Both the position numbers and the translations under genes were made by a program. A stretch of 64,000 nt of DNA from Candidatus Omnitrophota bacterium (GTDB lineage Bacteria > Omnitrophota > Omnitrophia > Omnitrophales > Aquincolibacteriaceae): NCBI GenBank assembly GCA_022709525.1, contig JAKLIQ010000003.1:65771-129770 (forward strand), written 5' to 3'. The notes beneath the pieces are model-generated. The model was given only the letters and a program-made list of their open reading frames with translations. It had not been told where the DNA came from and made no database searches. Position 1 is the first letter of the stretch, and each line of letters starts with the position of its first letter. This document shows positions 16,528-34,421 of the stretch, piece by piece.

Positions 16528-16995
16528 TTAACGGTTTAAAAGAAAGATCCCGAGGTTCAGGCCGCTTGCGAATGTCACCCAAAGAAGGTACGGGATCAAC
16601 ATAAGAGCGGCCAGGATCGAAACCTTGAAAAATCGCGTTATTGTAACCAAGATCATCGCCCAAAGGAACAAAATATCCACGAGCCCGGAAAGAGGAGAGC
16701 GAAGCCCGAAAAAAAGGAAAGACCACGATACGTTCAAGATCAGCTGGATAAGGAATGCTACGAGCGCCGACCGGACCGGCGGATTTTTTAGCCCTCGACG
16801 CCAAACAAGAGCCGCGGCGATCCCCATCAGGATATAAAGGGCTGTCCAGACGGGAGCGAAGAGCCAGTTGGGCGGCGAAAAAGAAGGTTTGTTCAAAGCC
16901 GCGTACCAGTCCGGGATCGCGGAAGCGGTAAAAAACGATCCCGCTGCTCCTGCGGATAAGCACAAAAGAACACAAAAAATAAGTTTAGCGAGCAT
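16528..16995 (-). CDS. tspO: TspO/MBR tryptophan-rich sensory protein
   Basis: 155 aa from second Met; WYAALNKPSFSPPNWLFAPVWTALYILMG signature. Confidence 0.85.
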   Translation of the reverse strand: MLAKLIFCVLLCLSAGAAGSFFTASAIPDWYAALNKPSFSPPNWLFAPVWTALYILMGIAAALVWRRGLKNPPVRSALVAFLIQLILNVSWSFLFFGLRSPLSGLVDILFLWAMILVTITRFFKVSILAALMLIPYLLWVTFASGLNLGIFLLNR

Positions 16996-18631
16996 AGGAA
17001 AACCCTCCCCGGATCCGGATGGCTTTGTTTTCAAGTGTTTTGATAGTATCAAGTTTCCGCCATAATTGAAAGAACACTTCGGGTTTAAATTTTATGACCG
17101 GCTCGAAGCCTTTCTGGGTTCGGGCATAAAAGATCTTTTCTTTCAGCAATTTTCTTAGGATCTCCGCTCCTATCCCGGAACGAACCCCTTCTTTCGCGGC
17201 GATTTCGAGCGCTTTTGAAAGCGGAACCTTCGGGGCGGAAAAAGGGATGCCTTTTAGAAAATTAAGGATACGCGTGATCACAAAAAGCGTGTAAAGATCG
17301 TCGCGGCCGAATATTCCGGTTTCCACGGCCATGGCCGTAAGCCGGGCCTTAAAAGCGTCCGCTTCGGAACATGCCCTGAAGCGGCCGGCGATCGGGGAAC
17401 CGGGGACCAAATAAAAAGGCGAAGCACCCAGAAGCGCCGGAAGCTTTGCATTAAAAATAAGGGTCCGGACCATGGAAGGGACGTTGTCGCCCGGGAGGCC
17501 CAGGATCTGATAGACGACCGTCTTAAAGCCGAGGGTAGCGGCGTCCCGAACGACTTCGCGATATTTTTTCAAAAAAATCGGCCGGCGGACGGATTTGAGA
17601 AGTTTTACGTTCACGCTCACAAGCGACAGATTCAGATGCGTGAATCCCGCTCGCCTCATAAGTTTGAGGGTCTTGCGATCCAGCGTCCAATAGCAGACCC
17701 CGTTCATGGCGAGGAGCTGGATATCTTTTTTAGGGAAATCCCGGACCAGCTTTTCGCAAAGTTCGGTCATTTCTTTACGGTCAAAGCTAAGATTGTCATC
17801 CTCAAAATCAAAGACGCGATAGCCTTCCTCATAACGCGTTTTGATCTCGGAGAGAATGTCTTCAGCCGAGCGCCGCCGGCATCGATGGCCGAAAGTGTTA
17901 TGGACTGAGCAAAAGCCGCATCGATAGGGGCACCCGCGTGAAGTAATGATGAAGCAGAGAGGTTTTTTTTCGAACAAATAACGACCTTTCGGGAGATCCG
18001 AAAAATCAGGGAATGGCAAGACCTCGATCGGGAAATTTTCTTTTTGAGGATTGAAGATCATTCGCCCGTTCTTTTTATATCCCAGGTTCGGGATTTTTTC
18101 GAATCCTCGGCCGCGTTTCAAACTTTTCAGCAATTCGACAAAAGGACGCTCGCCTTCGCCTCGGATTACAAGATCCACGGCCGGATGCGCGAGCATGGCC
18201 TCCGGCATCGCCGAGACCTGCGAACCGCCGAACAGGATGGGAACGCGGCAATATTTTTTGATCATTTCCGCGCAGCGCAGCGCCTCCCGGTGATACGGCG
18301 CAAAAAGCGAGGCGATCCCGACAAGATCCGGCCTTTCTTTCGCGGTTTCTTTCGCGATCGTTTCAAAATCGGCGCCGAAATGGTAATAGTGATGAAATAA
18401 AGAAAATGGGCTTTTGTCGTCTTTGGAATAATACTCCCTCAAATAGGCGAGGTCGCGCGGAAGGGGGATCGTCCGCCGGCCCCATCCTTGATGGTAATCC
18501 CGGACCGTGACCCGGATCTCAGGAAGATGTTTCTTGGCGGCAGCTTTCAGATAAGCCAAACCGATCGGCTGGAGGCGGATATCAGTATTGTAAAAATCCT
18601 GGACCGGCGGCTGTAAAAGCAGGACCTTCAT
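16985..18631 (-). CDS. B12-binding domain radical SAM protein (class B)
   Basis: N-terminal cobalamin-binding fold (MKVLLLQPP...), radical SAM CPYRCGFC motif. Confidence 0.8.
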   Translation of the reverse strand: MKVLLLQPPVQDFYNTDIRLQPIGLAYLKAAAKKHLPEIRVTVRDYHQGWGRRTIPLPRDLAYLREYYSKDDKSPFSLFHHYYHFGADFETIAKETAKERPDLVGIASLFAPYHREALRCAEMIKKYCRVPILFGGSQVSAMPEAMLAHPAVDLVIRGEGERPFVELLKSLKRGRGFEKIPNLGYKKNGRMIFNPQKENFPIEVLPFPDFSDLPKGRYLFEKKPLCFIITSRGCPYRCGFCSVHNTFGHRCRRRSAEDILSEIKTRYEEGYRVFDFEDDNLSFDRKEMTELCEKLVRDFPKKDIQLLAMNGVCYWTLDRKTLKLMRRAGFTHLNLSLVSVNVKLLKSVRRPIFLKKYREVVRDAATLGFKTVVYQILGLPGDNVPSMVRTLIFNAKLPALLGASPFYLVPGSPIAGRFRACSEADAFKARLTAMAVETGIFGRDDLYTLFVITRILNFLKGIPFSAPKVPLSKALEIAAKEGVRSGIGAEILRKLLKEKIFYARTQKGFEPVIKFKPEVFFQLWRKLDTIKTLENKAIRIRGGFSYAR

Positions 18632-18652
18632 AAAAGATCGCACCAAGCGCAA

Positions 18653-18702
18653 CGTTCGACGCTCAACGCGTTTGTCTTTCGCCGCGCGTTGCGCGCTAAG
18701 CG
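18653..18702 (+). promoter_or_regulatory. cluster of GCKCAACG half-sites in both orientations (gcgcaacg, gctcaacgcg, cgcgttgcgcgc, gcgttgcc) immediately upstream of the radical SAM gene
   Basis: read directly; same motif family recurs at 31338-31408. Confidence 0.4.
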
Positions 18703-19424
18703 TTGCCGGCTAGAAAAAGACATTGTTCCAGATCCTCCGGCAAGGGGGATTCCACCGTAAGGCTTTTTCCGAGGGCGGGATGCGGGAGAACAAGCCGCCA
18801 GGCGTGAAGAAAGAGGCGGCGCAGGCCAAGCGCTTGGCGCAACTCCTTGTTGAACGAAAAATTTCCGTAAAGGCGGTCGCCGGCGACAGGGTGTCCGCGG
18901 AAAGCCGATTGAACACGGATCTGATGCGTTTTCCCCGTGAGAAGCTCGATCTCAAGAAGCGATAGATTAAGTTTTGGAAAGGATTCTTGCGTTTTGTAGT
19001 TAAGAAAAGCGTTCGGACGGCCTGAACGGGCCACCATGCTCCGGATGCTTCCGCCAGATCTTTTCTCGACAAGCGCGTCGCGCCACAGACCTTGAGCCGG
19101 CATCGGTCGCCTTGAAACAAGGGCCACATAGTGTTTTTTAACTTTTCTCTCCTCGAACGACTTGCGGCACGCCTCGGCGCTTTTTTTGTTTTTTACCGCG
19201 AGGAGGATGCCGGAAGTGTCCTGGTCCAGCCGGTGGATAAGCCAAACGGGCCCGCCCGGAGTCTGGAATCTCCGGTCCTCAAGATCGTAAGAACCCTCAA
19301 AAGAGCAGAATGAAATTTTAGCGCCGGGATTGGGGTGCGAAAGGACTCCCTCGGGTTTATCGATGATGATGAGATCCGGGTCTTCAAAAAGGATGGGGCA
19401 TTTTGTTAAAAGAGAAGAGCTCAT
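18696..19424 (-). CDS. RluA-family pseudouridine synthase
   Basis: 242 aa; HRLDQDTSGILL catalytic motif. Confidence 0.85.
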   Translation of the reverse strand: MSSSLLTKCPILFEDPDLIIIDKPEGVLSHPNPGAKISFCSFEGSYDLEDRRFQTPGGPVWLIHRLDQDTSGILLAVKNKKSAEACRKSFEERKVKKHYVALVSRRPMPAQGLWRDALVEKRSGGSIRSMVARSGRPNAFLNYKTQESFPKLNLSLLEIELLTGKTHQIRVQSAFRGHPVAGDRLYGNFSFNKELRQALGLRRLFLHAWRLVLPHPALGKSLTVESPLPEDLEQCLFLAGNA

Positions 19425-20384
19425 TTAGACAAGGAAAGTCTGCAAAAAGTTAAAAAGATAGCCGGTAAAAACAATGCCGAGCGCTGTGATCCCGAAAAAG
19501 ATCGCGATAAGCGGCAATTTCATTGCCCGGCGCAGCATCACGGCTTCCGGGAGACTTAACGCCGAGACGGCCATCATAAAAGAAAGTGCGGTCCCGAGCG
19601 GGACACCTTTCTGGAAAAGCACGACGGCGACGGGGATAATGGCCGCGCAACTGCCGTACAACGGGACGCCGAGCAGCGTCGCGATCGGAACGGAGAAATA
19701 GCCGGTCTTGGCGATGATCCCGTGGATCGTTTGCTCGGGGACATAATTATGGATCAAGGCGCCGATCCCGACGCCTACAAGGATCCAGACCCAAAGTTTT
19801 TTAAGGATCAAGAGGGCTTCACGGAAGCCAAAAGCGATGCGCGATTTAAGGCCGCTATAAGCCGCGCTTTGAAGTTCCGACGAGCCCTGCGGCAGCATAT
19901 CTTCCACTAGGTGGACCTCAAGCTTCATTTTTCCGAGGATGACCCCGCAGGCGATCCCGATCGCCATACCGCTTAGGATATAAGCGAGCGTGATCTTCCA
20001 ACCGAAAAATCCGAGCATCAGGACCACAAGATATTCGTTAATAAGCGGGGAAGTGATCAAAAAGGAGAATGTGATCCCGAGCGGGATGCCCGCCTTGATA
20101 AAACTTAAAAAAAGAGGGATGGAAGAGCAGGAACAAAAAGGCGTGACTGCGCCGAAAAGCGACGCAAAGAAATTGCCCCACCCTTTTTTCTTGCCGATCC
20201 ACCCTTTAACCTTTTCGTGGGGCAGCCAGGTTCGCAGGAACCCGATCGCCGCGATCATTCCGAAAAGAAGAAGAAGGATCTTGACGGAGTCGTAGAGAAA
20301 GAAGGCCACCGCTTCCGCCCATCGCGCTTCGGGCGGAAGCCGGAGAACCGTGTAAACCAGCCAGTCGACCGCTACCCGCAGCAT
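19425..20384 (-). CDS. ArsP_1/COG0701-family permease (organoarsenical-efflux-permease-like)
   Basis: 319 aa, ~8-10 TM; [15 protein letters not shown] matches the ArsP TPFcSCSxxP motif. Confidence 0.7.
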
Positions 20385-20518
20385 GGGCCCTCTGGGTCTT
20401 TTTTGGAGGCACAGCCGCAGCCGGTCTTTTTGGCCTTTTCTTCGAGTTTTTTATCGATCTTTTCGAAAAGCTTCGTGAAAAAACCTTTTTTTTCGCTTGC
20501 CGGTCCTTTTTTTTCCAT
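20372..20518 (-). CDS. micro-ORF B: 48-aa Lys-rich peptide [48 protein letters not shown]
   Basis: starts 3 nt after micro-ORF A stop; stop overlaps ArsP-like start by 13 nt; frame requires T6 run near 20399-20404 as implied by ORF-track translations. Confidence 0.45.
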
Positions 20519-20521
20519 ACT

Positions 20522-20602
20522 TTAGCCGCAGCAGCAGCCGCAACGGGATTTTTTTGCTGTTTTTTTGGCTTTCTTTTTTGATTTCTTCGCTTTCTTGGCC
20601 AT
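20522..20602 (-). CDS. micro-ORF A: 26-aa Lys-rich peptide MAKKAKKSKKKAKKTAKKSRCGCCCG
   Basis: perfect AGGAGG 7 nt upstream of ATG; same strand as flanking transporters; shares AKK[ST]x0-1CGC...CCG pattern with ORF B. Confidence 0.5.
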   Translation of the reverse strand: MAKKAKKSKKKAKKTAKKSRCGCCCG

Positions 20603-20619
20603 GTTCCTGTTCCTCCTTT

Positions 20620-20892
20620 TTAGATTTTGTTAAAGAACATTAAAAATCCGATCACCACAAAAGCCGTCGCGCCGCCGTAGCGTATAAACTCGGGTTTTAT
20701 ATATTTTGCCAGTAACGTGCCAAGGACGACCGAGATCAGCGTGACGAGCATGTACCCGGCGACCGAACCTAAAAAAACCGACAAGGGCTTTCCGGTCTTT
20801 GCGGACATGGTGATCCCCACAAGCTGGGTCTTGTCGGCAAGCTCGGCGAAGAAGATTGCGCTGAAGGTCGCTAAAAAAACTTTCAGATCCAT
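20620..20892 (-). CDS. UPF0016 (GDT1/TMEM165) single-domain membrane protein
   Basis: 90 aa, 3 TM; E-x-G-D-[KR]-[TS]-type motif ELADKTQ; AGGAGG RBS. Confidence 0.7.
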   Translation of the reverse strand: MDLKVFLATFSAIFFAELADKTQLVGITMSAKTGKPLSVFLGSVAGYMLVTLISVVLGTLLAKYIKPEFIRYGGATAFVVIGFLMFFNKI

Positions 20893-20958
20893 GAGATCCT
20901 CCTTTAAAAAACGGTTCGCGGGAACAATTCTAACGTAAATGAAAAGAACGGAAAAGAA

Positions 20959-21837
20959 TTAAAGGAGCAGGTTGAGCAGGGCCCCGGCCGCGAGGCTTAT
21001 CAACGCCAGGAGGACGATGATCAAGGAGGTTTCTCTCCGGTCTTTGTTCTCTTTTAGAAGGACCAGCATGCCGAGGCCCCCGCCCGCCGAAAGGCCCGCA
21101 ACGGCCGACCCAAAGGTGATGCCCCCCTTTAGGTAGATTTCGGCAATTGCCACGGACGCGGCGCAGTTGGGGATCAGGCCCACGGCTACGGCCAGAAGCG
21201 GCTGGAAAACAGTGCCGGCAAAAAAGAAACGCTCCATGCCCGCTTCGCCCAACTTTGCGACCAAAAGCCCGATCCCGAGCGATATCGCGAAAATAAAAAG
21301 CAGGACCTTCAGGGTGTGTTTGAGCGGAAAAAGAAAGAGCGCCTTCCATTTCGGGATCTCGCAACCGTGGGCATGACATCCGCAAGCGCGATGGCCTCCT
21401 TCAGGGACAACGGGGCCGTGCGGCGGATGCGGTTCCCGAACGGCCTTTTGATTCAAGATAAGATCGACCGCGTACCCCGCGGCGGTCGCGATGATGACTT
21501 TAACAAGAAGAAGCCAAAAAACAAGGATGGCTTTATCCGGCTGGGCGAGAAAAACAGGAACGGCTTCATCCGAGGTCGAGAGAAAAACAGCCAGAAGGGT
21601 TCCCATGGAAATACAGCGGCGGGCATAAAGCGTAGCGGCGATCACGGAAAAACCGCATTGGGGAATACAGCCGAAAAGCGCGCCCAAAAAAGGCGCGATG
21701 CCCTTTCGGTGACTGATCTTCTCCCCGATAAAGGATTCCGATTTGTTTTCAAAGAATTCAAGCGCGATATAGATCCCCAAAAGCCAAGGAAACATGGCGA
21801 AGGTGTCTTTGAGGGCGTCGGCCAGGATCTCGTTCAT
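20959..21837 (-). CDS. polytopic permease with His/Cys-rich loop (putative heavy-metal exporter-like, possibly ArsP_2/DUF2899-like)
   Basis: ~292 aa from ATG with AGGAG upstream (track used TTG at 21876); loop REPHPPHGPVVPEGGHRACGCHAHGCE; family assignment from memory. Confidence 0.5.
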   Translation of the reverse strand: MNEILADALKDTFAMFPWLLGIYIALEFFENKSESFIGEKISHRKGIAPFLGALFGCIPQCGFSVIAATLYARRCISMGTLLAVFLSTSDEAVPVFLAQPDKAILVFWLLLVKVIIATAAGYAVDLILNQKAVREPHPPHGPVVPEGGHRACGCHAHGCEIPKWKALFLFPLKHTLKVLLFIFAISLGIGLLVAKLGEAGMERFFFAGTVFQPLLAVAVGLIPNCAASVAIAEIYLKGGITFGSAVAGLSAGGGLGMLVLLKENKDRRETSLIIVLLALISLAAGALLNLLL

Positions 21838-21891
21838 TTTTTTTGCGCGGCTCCTGATTGTAGGAAATAAACACAAGGATAGTACTTAAGA

Positions 21892-22155
21892 ATGCGTTCG
21901 AAATCAAGAAGTCCGCGAGAACGGGCGCCGCTTGCGGCGGGGTTCCGATTCTGCGACAATAATGGGGTGAAAAATTATCTCTGGAAATACTTTTTGCCGG
22001 GGGCGGTCTTGGTCGGCTGCGCGTTCTGGGCCGGGACGCTTCCAAGCCCGGTCTTTGCGCTCGCGGGATTCCTTTCTTTTTTCGTGATCGGCGTGACACT
22101 GATCGTCGAAGGGCGCAAAAAAAGCAGACAGCAGACCACGGACCACAAACGATAG
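21892..22155 (+). CDS. hypothetical small membrane protein
   Basis: 87-aa ORF, 2 predicted TM; divergent from permease operon; true start uncertain. Confidence 0.3.
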   Translation: MRSKSRSPRERAPLAAGFRFCDNNGVKNYLWKYFLPGAVLVGCAFWAGTLPSPVFALAGFLSFFVIGVTLIVEGRKKSRQQTTDHKR

Positions 22156-22218
22156 CTAAAAGCTTTAGCGGAGGCCTTCAGTCCCTAGTCTCTTGTCTAA
22201 CCGAAGCAGGAGGTTTAT

Positions 22219-22611
22219 GTGGCTTACTTCAAGTGGTTGAGCATCGTTCTTGGAAGCTGGATGCTTTTAGGCGGGCTCTGGGTCGTTTTTTTCACCAGGG
22301 CCTGGAAAGACCTTGTCCTTAAAATGTGCCCCGAAAAACGTCCCGTTTGGCTTCTTTGGGTAAACCTGTTTTTCCTGGGGTTTCTGATCTGGACCTGGTA
22401 CTGGTTCCTCCTGAATCTAAGCCCTTACTCCTTTGTTGCGACCTTTGTGGTCAGTCTTTCGCTTGCGAAAATGATCCCCGCTGTTTTTTTCTATGCCAAG
22501 TTCCGGGAGATCGTTCTCGGCCTTATGAACGAACCTGTTGCGTTGCGCATGGTCATGCTGAGCTCCGCCGCTATCGGCGCCGCACTCCTTACGATGGGAC
22601 TCTTTTTTTAA
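22219..22611 (+). CDS. hypothetical membrane protein (4 TM)
   Basis: 130 aa, GTG start preceded by GCAGGAGG. Confidence 0.45.
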   Translation: MAYFKWLSIVLGSWMLLGGLWVVFFTRAWKDLVLKMCPEKRPVWLLWVNLFFLGFLIWTWYWFLLNLSPYSFVATFVVSLSLAKMIPAVFFYAKFREIVLGLMNEPVALRMVMLSSAAIGAALLTMGLFF

Positions 22612-22639
22612 CAACCGGCTTTTTCCAAAAAAGGCGCGT

Positions 22640-23797
22640 ATGAAGGTCTGCCATACCGAGAAACTTCCCATCAAGATGTGGCTTGAGGATATCGAGGAAG
22701 GGGCCATGGAGCAGCTTCGCAATCTCGCCAATCTTCCTTTCGCTTTCAAACACATCGCCGTCATGCCCGACAGCCACCAAGGCTACGGCATGCCCATCGG
22801 CGGAGTGCTTGCGACGCAGGGCGTGATCATTCCGAACGCCGTAGGCGTCGATATCGGTTGCGGCATGTGCGCGGTAAGAACCAGTCTCGAAGGGATCGAC
22901 CGGGAAATCCTAAAAAAGATTGTCTGGGGGATCAAAGCCCTTATCCCTGTCGGCTTTGAGCATCACAAGACCCCGCAAAACGAAATTTATATGCCGGATA
23001 AACATTTTGAGCTTGGCCCTGTCTGCCAGCGCGAATATCACAGCGCCTTAACGCAGATCGGCACGCTCGGCGGCGGAAACCATTTCATCGAAGTTCAAAA
23101 AGGTTCGGATGGGGCGGTCTGGGTCATGGTCCACAGCGGAAGCCGGAACCTCGGCAAGCAGGTCGCCGACCACTACAACCGTATTGCCATCCGCTTGAAC
23201 GAAAAAATGCATTCGTCAGTTCCGGCGGCGCATGAGCTTGCGTTCCTTCTCGAAGATAGCGACGAAGGAAGGGCCTATATCCGCGAAATGAACTATTGTG
23301 TGGAATTCGCTTTTCAGAACCGGAAGCTCATGATCGAACGGATCGCCGATTGTTTTTTAAAATACACCCGCTGTTTTTTCGAGCCGATGATCAATATCGC
23401 CCACAACTATGCGCGGAAAGAAAACCATTTTGGCCGGGACGTGTGGGTCCACCGGAAAGGCGCGACCTCGGCAAAAAAAGGCGAAGCCGGGATCGTGCCC
23501 GGCTCTCAAGGGACAAAAAGTTATATCGTGCGAGGAAAAGGGAGCCCCGAAAGTTTCGAGTCTTGTTCCCACGGCGCAGGCCGCAAGATGGGCCGCAAAC
23601 AGGCCCAGCGCTCACTGGATCTTAAAAAAGAGATCGAGAAAATGAATGCTCAAGGGATCATTCACGATATCCGTGGCGTTCGCTCACTTGACGAAGCTCC
23701 CGGCGCCTACAAGGATATTTCGGAGGTCATGAAACAGCAGTCCGACCTCGTCGATATCGAAGTCGAACTTTCCCCACTAGCTGTTATTAAGGGATGA
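22640..23797 (+). CDS. rtcB: RNA-splicing ligase RtcB
   Basis: 385 aa; MPDSHQGYG, GVDIGCGM, GGGNHF metal-binding motifs. Confidence 0.88.
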   Translation: MKVCHTEKLPIKMWLEDIEEGAMEQLRNLANLPFAFKHIAVMPDSHQGYGMPIGGVLATQGVIIPNAVGVDIGCGMCAVRTSLEGIDREILKKIVWGIKALIPVGFEHHKTPQNEIYMPDKHFELGPVCQREYHSALTQIGTLGGGNHFIEVQKGSDGAVWVMVHSGSRNLGKQVADHYNRIAIRLNEKMHSSVPAAHELAFLLEDSDEGRAYIREMNYCVEFAFQNRKLMIERIADCFLKYTRCFFEPMINIAHNYARKENHFGRDVWVHRKGATSAKKGEAGIVPGSQGTKSYIVRGKGSPESFESCSHGAGRKMGRKQAQRSLDLKKEIEKMNAQGIIHDIRGVRSLDEAPGAYKDISEVMKQQSDLVDIEVELSPLAVIKG

Positions 23798-32570: not shown

Positions 32571-32643
32571 GCTGGAGTAGCTCAGTCGGTAGAGCACATC
32601 CTTGGTAAGGATGAGGTCATGGGTTCAATTCCCATCTCCAGCT
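32571..32643 (+). tRNA. tRNA-Thr (anticodon GGU)
   Basis: cloverleaf; anticodon loop ttGGTaa; T-loop ttcaatt; 73 nt. Confidence 0.85.
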
Positions 32644-34296: not shown

Positions 34297-34370
34297 AAGG
34301 CCTGTAGCTCCAATTGGTAGAGCGGCGGTCTCCAAAACCGCATGTTGCAGGTTCGAGTCCTGCCAGGCCT
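34297..34370 (+). tRNA. tRNA-Trp (anticodon CCA)
   Basis: cloverleaf; anticodon loop ctCCAaa; precedes secE-nusG as in many bacteria. Confidence 0.85.
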
Positions 34371-34421
34371 GTTTTACGCAGGCGCGTGTTTTAAAACTCG
34401 AAAAGCGAGCGTGGAAATAAC

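Follow-up and report, generated by a model that had tools for sequence, protein, structure and literature searches.

The gene at positions 20959-21837 (minus strand) of a 64-kb window from a Candidatus Omnitrophota genome (contig JAKLIQ010000003.1) encodes a permease of the ArsP_2 family, most likely a secondary transporter whose substrate is a divalent transition-metal cation of thiophilic or borderline character. The best guess for this substrate, favoured here with modest confidence, is Zn2+ or a similar ion (Fe2+, Co2+, Ni2+ or Cd2+). The window is the whole stretch of DNA that was analysed, and all coordinates are positions within it. Two properties place the protein in this functional class: it has conserved residues of the metal-ligand type both in its membrane domain and in a central loop rich in histidine and cysteine, and the family is associated in genomes with metal-homeostasis genes and regulators. 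Judged from sequence, this loop is a hallmark of the whole family and not a peculiarity of the Omnitrophota genome, and the gene itself is an ordinary orthologue, a new member of a widespread known family. The gene and its translation start are as follows.

20959-21837, minus strand: permease gene of the ArsP_2 / NF037962 family, 292 aa plus stop, from the open reading frame (ORF), orthologue starts and hidden Markov model (HMM) matches
21851-21855, minus strand: Shine-Dalgarno-like AGGAG (CTCCT on the plus strand), read from the sequence, 13 nt upstream of the ATG

The longest listed ORF (20959-21876, 305 aa) opens at a TTG, and translation from the in-frame ATG at 21835-21837 yields 292 aa. 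Orthologues in the databases have 292-293 aa and share the same initial Met, including one (P0001) that is 100% identical over 292 aa. Because the orthologues share this Met and AGGAG lies upstream of it, the ATG is the correct start. The membrane protein of 292 aa with an upstream AGGAG that the initial annotation had read from the DNA is thus borne out, and the cysteines that it listed, C57 and C61 (GCIPQCG) and C225 (PNCAAS), are found in the protein as described.

The HMM scan that the initial annotation had proposed shows that the class which it had named, ArsP_2/DUF2899, was right. The protein matches Pfam PF11449 (ArsP_2) at 70.6 bits (E=1.8e-19; gathering score 32.5 bits) in two stretches flanking the central loop, and NCBIfam NF037962 (subfamily name 'arsenic efflux protein') at 227.5 bits (curated cut-off 100 bits), with residues 11-285 on profile positions 1-287 of 287. 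Of the further description of this class as 10-transmembrane heavy-metal exporters, the helix number does not fit this protein, which has eight helical segments, and 'heavy-metal exporter' proves to be only a database label. TCDB places PF11449 proteins in ArsP subfamily 2.A.119.2 (PMC7176098). A word-indexed search, in which 8000 candidates were scored, returned at least 5224 homologues at E<=1e-5. The best 120 of these 5224 are 48-100% identical and all carry PF11449, and the organism-named sequences among them are Candidatus Omnitrophota, with the NCBI name 'putative manganese transporter'. An exhaustive search of 1.84 billion cluster representatives gave 1970 clusters at E<=0.001, and a scan of one genome per species found the gene in at least 597 species, most of them anaerobes. 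The best 80 genomes come mostly from anaerobic lineages, and include Omnitrophota, Planctomycetia, the Candidate Phyla Radiation (CPR), many gut Clostridia, Melainabacteria, Methanosarcina, Syntrophus and Caldisericia; the family is kept even in the reduced genomes of CPR/Patescibacteria. No fused soluble domains were found in longer homologues, whose extensions look like junk or long loops.

The first line of evidence for a metal substrate is the central loop.

21340-21456, minus strand: central loop that joins helix 4 to helix 5 (residues 128-166; 5 His, 3 Cys), predicted to be disordered (predicted local distance difference test, pLDDT, about 50 at residues 131-160)
21367-21429, minus strand: conserved loop core H137-x2-H140-x8-H149-x2-C152-x-C154-H155-x-H157, from an alignment of 117 orthologues

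The loop stretch REPHPPHGPVVPEGGHRACGCHAHGCEIPKWK corresponds to residues 134-165, and the hydrophobic helices 100-127 and 163-204 lie on either side, in agreement with the earlier description of a loop between hydrophobic blocks. Eight Cys or His residues fall within the 39 loop residues compared with six in the other 253 (binomial tail P=3e-6). Among the 117 Omnitrophota orthologues each core position is kept in 82-99% (H137 in 102, H140 in 110, H149 in 96, C152 in 116, C154 in 102, H155 in 106 and H157 in 114), and C152 is at least 90% conserved in 118 diverse family members. Aligned examples reveal that orthologues without C154 often have a Cys at position 153, and C159 is variable (Cys in 16 of 117).

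The same composition extends across the family, as judged from 149 representatives clustered at 50% identity. Their loops contain at least two Cys in 129 cases, at least two His in 128 and a C-x0-2-C pair in 116, this pair being commonly GCCGH and situated about 10-15 residues ahead of helix 5. Within the loops Cys accounts for 5.8% of residues versus 1.5% elsewhere, and His 10.6% versus 1.5%. The loops range in length from 24 to 121 aa and are otherwise unalignable; some members carry extreme His/Asp/Glu repeats, with 35 His in 102 residues in one of them (P0211). Rather than being variable or absent in orthologues the loop is thus conserved in them and rich in His and Cys family-wide, which supports the initial prediction of a metal-binding type of loop.

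The second line of evidence comes from the membrane domain. An AlphaFold2 model built on a 118-sequence alignment (pLDDT 86.6, predicted template modelling score 0.84) contains eight helical segments, distributed as follows.

Helical segments of the model, first half: residues 2-40; 48-56 and 62-72; 78-87 and 92-97; 100-127
Low-confidence loop of the model: residues about 128 to 162
Helical segments of the model, second half: residues 163-204; 212-220 and 225-236; 242-251 and 255-263; 267-291

The halves are homologous (residues 2-127 versus 165-291; hhalign probability 99%, E=8.9e-18). This repeat, together with the eight modelled segments, agrees with the TCDB 2.A.119 description of ArsP proteins as two homologous 4-helix repeat units with a hydrophilic loop between them (PMC7176098). 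Several helices are broken in the model, helix 7 at a GGG between residues 242-251 and 255-263 and three others at conserved motifs.

21652-21672, minus strand: G-C57-I-P-Q-C61-G at the helix 2 break (48-56 / 62-72), from conservation and the model
21565-21579, minus strand: S87-T-S89-D90-E91 at the helix 3 break (78-87 / 92-97), from conservation and the model
21154-21174, minus strand: I-P223-N-C225-A-A-S at the helix 6 break (212-220 / 225-236), the second-repeat counterpart of IPQC

In the 118 sequences, which span the family, S89, D90, P223, C225 and K113 (the last on helix 4) are invariant, and P59, Q60, C61, G62, T88 and E91 are at least 90% conserved. The repeat alignment sets the IPQC61 motif of the first half on the IPNC of the second. 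Since the conserved positions coincide with the modelled breaks, conserved polar and thiol residues appear to sit where helices are interrupted, and it is at such breaks that ion-binding sites are usually located.

No solved relative was found by sequence (phmmer against PDB sequences, best E=2.4) or by fold, a Foldseek search of the model against the PDB giving nothing at E<=0.001 (best E=0.16, TM-scores no higher than 0.31 among the matches listed). No SWEET, PQ-loop, KDELR or MPC structure is among the 50 Foldseek matches listed, and this result, obtained with a model, does not support the published placement of the ArsP family in the TOG superfamily.

The sidedness of the loop was approached through the mean number of Lys plus Arg (K+R) per segment over the 149 sequences.

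Mean K+R, first half: N-terminus 0.40; loop between helices 1 and 2 (L1-2) 3.40; L2-3 1.27; L3-4 0.23; central loop 5.05
Mean K+R, second half: L5-6 0.77; L6-7 0.31; L7-8 3.12; C-terminus 0.16

The flanks of the central loop thus have the highest Lys/Arg density of the protein (5.05 per sequence). Repeat-equivalent loops are oppositely charged (L1-2 versus L5-6 and L3-4 versus L7-8), which is the pattern that inverted repeats would produce, and these charges, like the Foldseek result, sit uneasily with the published 4+4 TOG assignment of the ArsP family. When topologies were enumerated, the central loop lay inside in all eight best repeat-symmetric models. The best model that is physically plausible makes helices 2 and 6 (the IPxC segments) re-entrant, with both termini outside, the loop inside and K+R of 12.84 inside versus 1.87 outside. 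This charge distribution makes it likely that the loop is cytoplasmic, a location that would also fit its chemistry because free thiols are unlikely outside the cell. The initial annotation had called the loop cytoplasmic, and Lys/Arg favours that side in the plausible topologies; however, a plain topology of eight transmembrane helices has no charge bias (7.19 versus 7.52 K+R) and favours neither side.

Taken together, loop and membrane domain suggest a mechanism for transport of a transition metal. The protein would consist of two homologous four-helix halves, in each of which two helices are broken mid-membrane. C57 and C61 (IPQC), S89-D90-E91 and C225 (IPNC), with K113 on helix 4, could then form an intramembrane binding and coupling site. 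The linker between the halves, predicted to be disordered, would carry the H-x2-H...H-x2-C-x-C-H-x-H cluster about 10 residues before helix 5 and may serve in cytoplasmic metal capture, hand-off or sensing, much as His-rich loops do in CDF and ZIP transporters. The mixture of His and Cys among the ligands is best matched by Zn2+-like substrates.

Genomic context is the third line of evidence. The gene is followed on the same strand by four small or related genes that recur in other Omnitrophota.

20620-20892, minus strand: GDT1/UPF0016 gene, single-repeat, 90 aa (PF01169, E=2.8e-22)
20522-20602, minus strand: micro-ORF 1, 26 aa, MAKKAKKSKKKAKKTAKKSRCGCCCG, in which poly-Lys/Ala leads into a Cys cluster at the C-terminus (MAKKAKK...SRCGCCCG)
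20372-20518, minus strand: micro-ORF 2, 48 aa (...GCGC...PCCG), with a 13-nt overlap with the ArsP_1 start
19425-20384, minus strand: ArsP_1 permease, 319 aa (PF03773, E=1e-59)

The order on the minus strand is ArsP_2, GDT1, micro-ORF 1, micro-ORF 2, ArsP_1 and an RluA-like pseudouridine synthase, with gaps that run from 66 nt down to overlaps. The view of the initial annotation that the permease gene is the first of an operon is upheld insofar as it heads this co-directional string and the genes upstream are divergent; it gains nothing from promoters or terminators, since no such signal above chance was found at the operon ends and their counts were no better than in shuffled sequence. Seven related loci (L001-L007) exhibit the same architecture with different contents. 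L005 has ArsP_2, GDT1, micro-ORF 1, micro-ORF 2 and ArsP_1, and L006 has ArsP_2, micro-ORF 1, micro-ORF 2, ArsP_1 and the pseudouridine synthase. In L004 and L007 the order is ArsP_2, GDT1, micro-ORF 1 and pseudouridine synthase. The clusters of L001 and L002 consist of ArsP_2, CDF, Amt, PII, micro-ORF 1, micro-ORF 2 and ArsP_1, and that of L003 of ArsP_2, CDF, Nramp, a 69-aa ORF, MgtE, GDT1, micro-ORF 1, micro-ORF 2 and ArsP_1. ArsP_2 is constantly first in these orthologous clusters and the cargo varies.

The GDT1 family is annotated as divalent cation/proton antiporters, and a GDT1 gene of 90-95 aa stands directly after ArsP_2 or later in the cluster in L003, L004, L005 and L007. The 'manganese' label given to the permease fits this GDT1 neighbour better than it fits the Cys-rich ArsP_2. 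The GDT1 protein of the window has three transmembrane segments and one ELADKT motif, and by eye its Lys and Arg are nearly balanced; no second GDT1 half-gene was found anywhere in the window. Because of the nearly balanced spread of Lys and Arg, it may act as a dual-topology homodimer.

Beyond Omnitrophota, neighbours were surveyed with Pfam counts at the best 80 family loci (67 co-directional adjacent genes and 150 further neighbours, 217 in all). The recurrent adjacent families that are not lineage-specific are Fur (5 genes), tandem ArsP_2 paralogues (4) and FeoB (2). CobW occurs twice among the further neighbours, and CDF-type genes also recur near family loci. All five Fur-family genes within 6 kb lie on the same strand as ArsP_2 and 12-25 bp from it, in Syntrophus, Moraniibacteriota, Clostridia, Bacilli and Butyrivibrio. 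The genomic context, with CDF, Nramp, MgtE, GDT1 and Fur-family genes, argues for metal homeostasis and not for arsenic.

The tandem paralogues present a separate observation. A second ArsP_2 lies directly upstream in four loci (L025, L041, L042 and L052), by eye from Melainabacteria-type genomes, and has the variant motifs IPECGY/IPESGY and CSDDA in place of IPQCG and STSDEA. These variants may indicate a heteromeric pair or a change of substrate.

Several observations weigh against assignment of the gene to a transition metal such as Zn2+, as does the lack of charge bias in the plain topology. No functional characterisation of any PF11449 / DUF2899 / ArsP_2 member was found in the literature searched, where a TCDB classification paper and a DUF survey mention the family but give no functional data; composition and context are therefore the only grounds for naming a substrate. 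NCBI sources disagree over the name, with 'arsenic efflux protein' in use as well as 'putative manganese transporter'. Fur adjacency is confined to about 6% of loci, and neighbourhoods outside Omnitrophota are mostly heterogeneous. Consensus scans for Fur, PerR or Zur boxes upstream of 74 operons gave results not clearly above the random-window background. No riboswitch was detected by Rfam in the whole window at gathering thresholds, in positions 19000-23000 at E<=1 or in 24 related loci with long upstream regions, all of which gave only tRNAs, and a regular-expression screen for yybP-ykoY-like cores yielded one irrelevant intragenic match; there is thus no riboswitch clue to the substrate. 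The sole Rfam matches in the window are tRNA genes at 192-262, 32571-32643 and 34298-34371 (plus strand). Finally, the direction of transport is ambiguous, because homology suggests export but tight coupling to Fur-family genes is commoner for uptake systems. Uptake genes are the classical targets of Fur-family regulators, and in Firmicutes the genes of Fur and Zur repressors typically share a transcript with them.

One alternative differs from the preferred explanation in direction only: the protein would be a metal importer, taking up Zn2+ or Fe2+, for example, in anoxic habitats, and its cytoplasmic loop would be a feedback sensor that closes the transporter in a replete cell, as has been proposed for ZIP loops. 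The tight coupling of Fur-family genes in five lineages (gaps of 12-25 bp), the FeoB and CobW/COG0523-type neighbours, the Nramp and MgtE importers within clusters and the retention of the family in reduced CPR/Patescibacteria genomes are all consistent with uptake. Nevertheless, the characterised relatives in the superfamily export their substrates (PMC6205960; bioRxiv 10.1101/2022.07.06.499078) and the CDF and GDT1 neighbours are exporters or antiporters. The Fur signal itself is equivocal, as all of the adjacent regulators score below NCBIfam equivalog cut-offs, so that no subtype is assigned, and efflux genes controlled by PerR or Fur exist. An importer is judged unlikely.

The name under which the family is filed implies another function, an arsenical efflux permease whose conserved Cys would be thiolate ligands of As(III) or methylarsenite, a role proposed for those of the ArsP of Campylobacter jejuni (CjArsP). 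CjArsP exports trivalent organoarsenicals (PMC6205960), and ArsP_2 is distantly but genuinely homologous to the ArsP_1 family, of which CjArsP is a member: the protein is colinear with the neighbouring ArsP_1 (E=0.004), PF03773 weakly matches ArsP_2 family members over their full length, the conserved Cys occupy positions equivalent to those of ArsP_1, and TCDB puts both families together in 2.A.119 (PMC7176098). However, the protein itself has no PF03773 match, PF11449 being its sole Pfam family, and the PF03773 match in this region belongs to the neighbour at 19425-20384. Phmmer searches with single E. coli-type seeds, which have limited sensitivity and which remote forms could escape, found no ArsR or ArsC homologue among 911 ORFs around the 80 loci or in the window, and no ars family recurs in the Pfam counts over the 217 neighbours. 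The neighbours are instead divalent-metal transporters and Fur-family regulators, and long loops rich in His, Asp and Glu are typical of Zn, Ni or Co ligands and needless for arsenic-thiol chemistry. Because the protein fails both the PF03773 and the ars-context tests, the arsenical reading is weak, and an arsenical substrate is considered improbable.

A carrier of thiols, disulfides or sulfur compounds instead of metals, with C61 and C225 as a redox pair by analogy with the Cys pair of CcdA/DsbD, could draw on the one conserved P-x-C that each homologous half has at the same position, at a helix break, and on the mostly anaerobic lineages of the best 80 genomes, but with no sequence or structure match to CcdA/DsbD or any solved structure, no thioredoxin-like partner among recurrent neighbours, and the His-rich loops and metal-gene context left unexplained, it seems very improbable.

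The neighbouring ArsP_1 is, by alignment, a remote paralogue of the ArsP_2 (24% identity, colinear), with IPQC61 falling on TPFCSC and NC225AA on SCAA, and it contains a GSCAAIIP motif. Its central loop has no Cys and a single His. Its best NCBIfam matches, SaoE and SO_0444 Cu/Zn efflux, reach 110 and 103 bits and so fall far short of their cut-offs (325 and 300), which suggests an unassigned branch of that family. Micro-ORF 1 has counterparts (MAKKAKK... ending in CCCR, CCCC, RCCR or RRCC) in all seven related loci L001-L007, also where ArsP_1 is absent, and no convincing copy in 77 non-Omnitrophota loci. Micro-ORF 2, in which a predicted amphipathic K/E-rich stretch precedes GCGC...PCCG, tracks ArsP_1 exactly: both are present in the window, L001-L003, L005 and L006, and neither in L004 or L007. 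A search for homologues of micro-ORF 2 returned only itself, as an identical protein annotated as hypothetical in an Omnitrophota metagenome-assembled genome, and neither micro-ORF has a Pfam or NCBIfam match. The initial annotation had noted a CGC motif shared between the loop and these micro-ORFs. CGC does occur in both (...SRCGCCCG; ...TGCGCAS...PCCG), but orthologues conserve C-x-C in the loop and not CGC: the usual form is C-D/S-C, and Gly153 is present in 8 of 117.

An attractive idea is that the micro-ORF peptides might provide in trans what ArsP_2 has in cis, and the small protein SaoC, encoded next to the ArsP-family permease SaoE, offers a precedent (bioRxiv 10.1101/2022.07.06.499078). 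A bolder version of it, which is quite unlikely as a whole, holds that ArsP_2 is an inverted-repeat transporter whose IPxC re-entrant hairpins meet mid-membrane as a Cys-lined metal site, that the micro-ORF peptides are metal chaperones or buffers acting in trans, and that micro-ORF 2 serves the loop-less ArsP_1. If true, ArsP_2 would depart from the 4+4 parallel TOG topology under which it is filed, and the small cytoplasmic peptides of the conserved metal-handling island in Omnitrophota would be anchored to membrane or nucleic acid by poly-Lys and would carry their Cys cluster at the C-terminus.

Two other sets of genes lie beside the cluster. At 21892-22155 and 22219-22611 (plus strand), divergent from ArsP_2, are two small hydrophobic proteins that match no family significantly; the second, of 130 aa, is 58% identical to a protein at the same divergent position in L001, so that the pairing is conserved. 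Downstream of the cluster, at 16528-19424 (minus strand), the RluA-like pseudouridine synthase, a B12-binding radical SAM protein and TspO form a block that is syntenic with L004 and appears unrelated to metal transport.

The assignment to transition metals matters because the labels of this family contradict one another ('arsenic efflux protein', 'putative manganese transporter', 'heavy-metal exporter') and no experiment in the literature searched supports any of them. The loop hallmark, the Cys and Asp at helix breaks and the metal-type neighbours together offer a testable reassignment from 'arsenic efflux' to transition-metal transport, and they are a caution to metagenome surveys not to score PF11449 genes as determinants of arsenic resistance. 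Further value lies in the hints that the topology is non-canonical and that partner peptides with Cys tails exist.

Comparison with known systems places the protein closest to its own family, PF11449 (formerly DUF2899), equivalent to NF037962 and TCDB 2.A.119.2, with which it shares the two-repeat layout, the IPQCGFS, STSDE and IPNCAAS motifs and the His/Cys loop. It is a minimal ArsP_2, with a centre of 39 aa where about 90 central Pfam positions are unmatched, and eight helical segments compared with the nominal ten. The ArsP of C. jejuni (PF03773, TC 2.A.119.1), a permease that exports trivalent organoarsenicals (PMC6205960), is a remote homologue with the same two-repeat layout (PMC7176098) and equivalent Cys positions in ArsP_1 and ArsP_2; the present protein differs in failing PF03773 and in having no ars operon context that could be found, and the adjacent ArsP_1 lacks a His/Cys-rich loop. 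The SO_0444 family, described as Cu/Zn efflux proteins, and SaoE are members of this superfamily too and depend on Cys motifs, CSC and sometimes Sec-Ser-Cys (bioRxiv 10.1101/2022.07.06.499078). Models of these two match the neighbouring ArsP_1, below cut-offs, and not the ArsP_2. SaoE is encoded beside SaoC, a small protein ending in Cys-Cys (bioRxiv 10.1101/2022.07.06.499078). This small neighbour recalls the Cys-tailed micro-ORFs of the window, which however have no detectable homology to any family. Transporters of the CDF (ZnT/CzcD-type) and ZIP families have disordered, His-rich cytoplasmic loops of variable length between transmembrane helices. The likeness of these loops to that of ArsP_2 is one of functional analogy and not of homology, and ArsP_2 adds to it a conserved C-x-C or CC pair.

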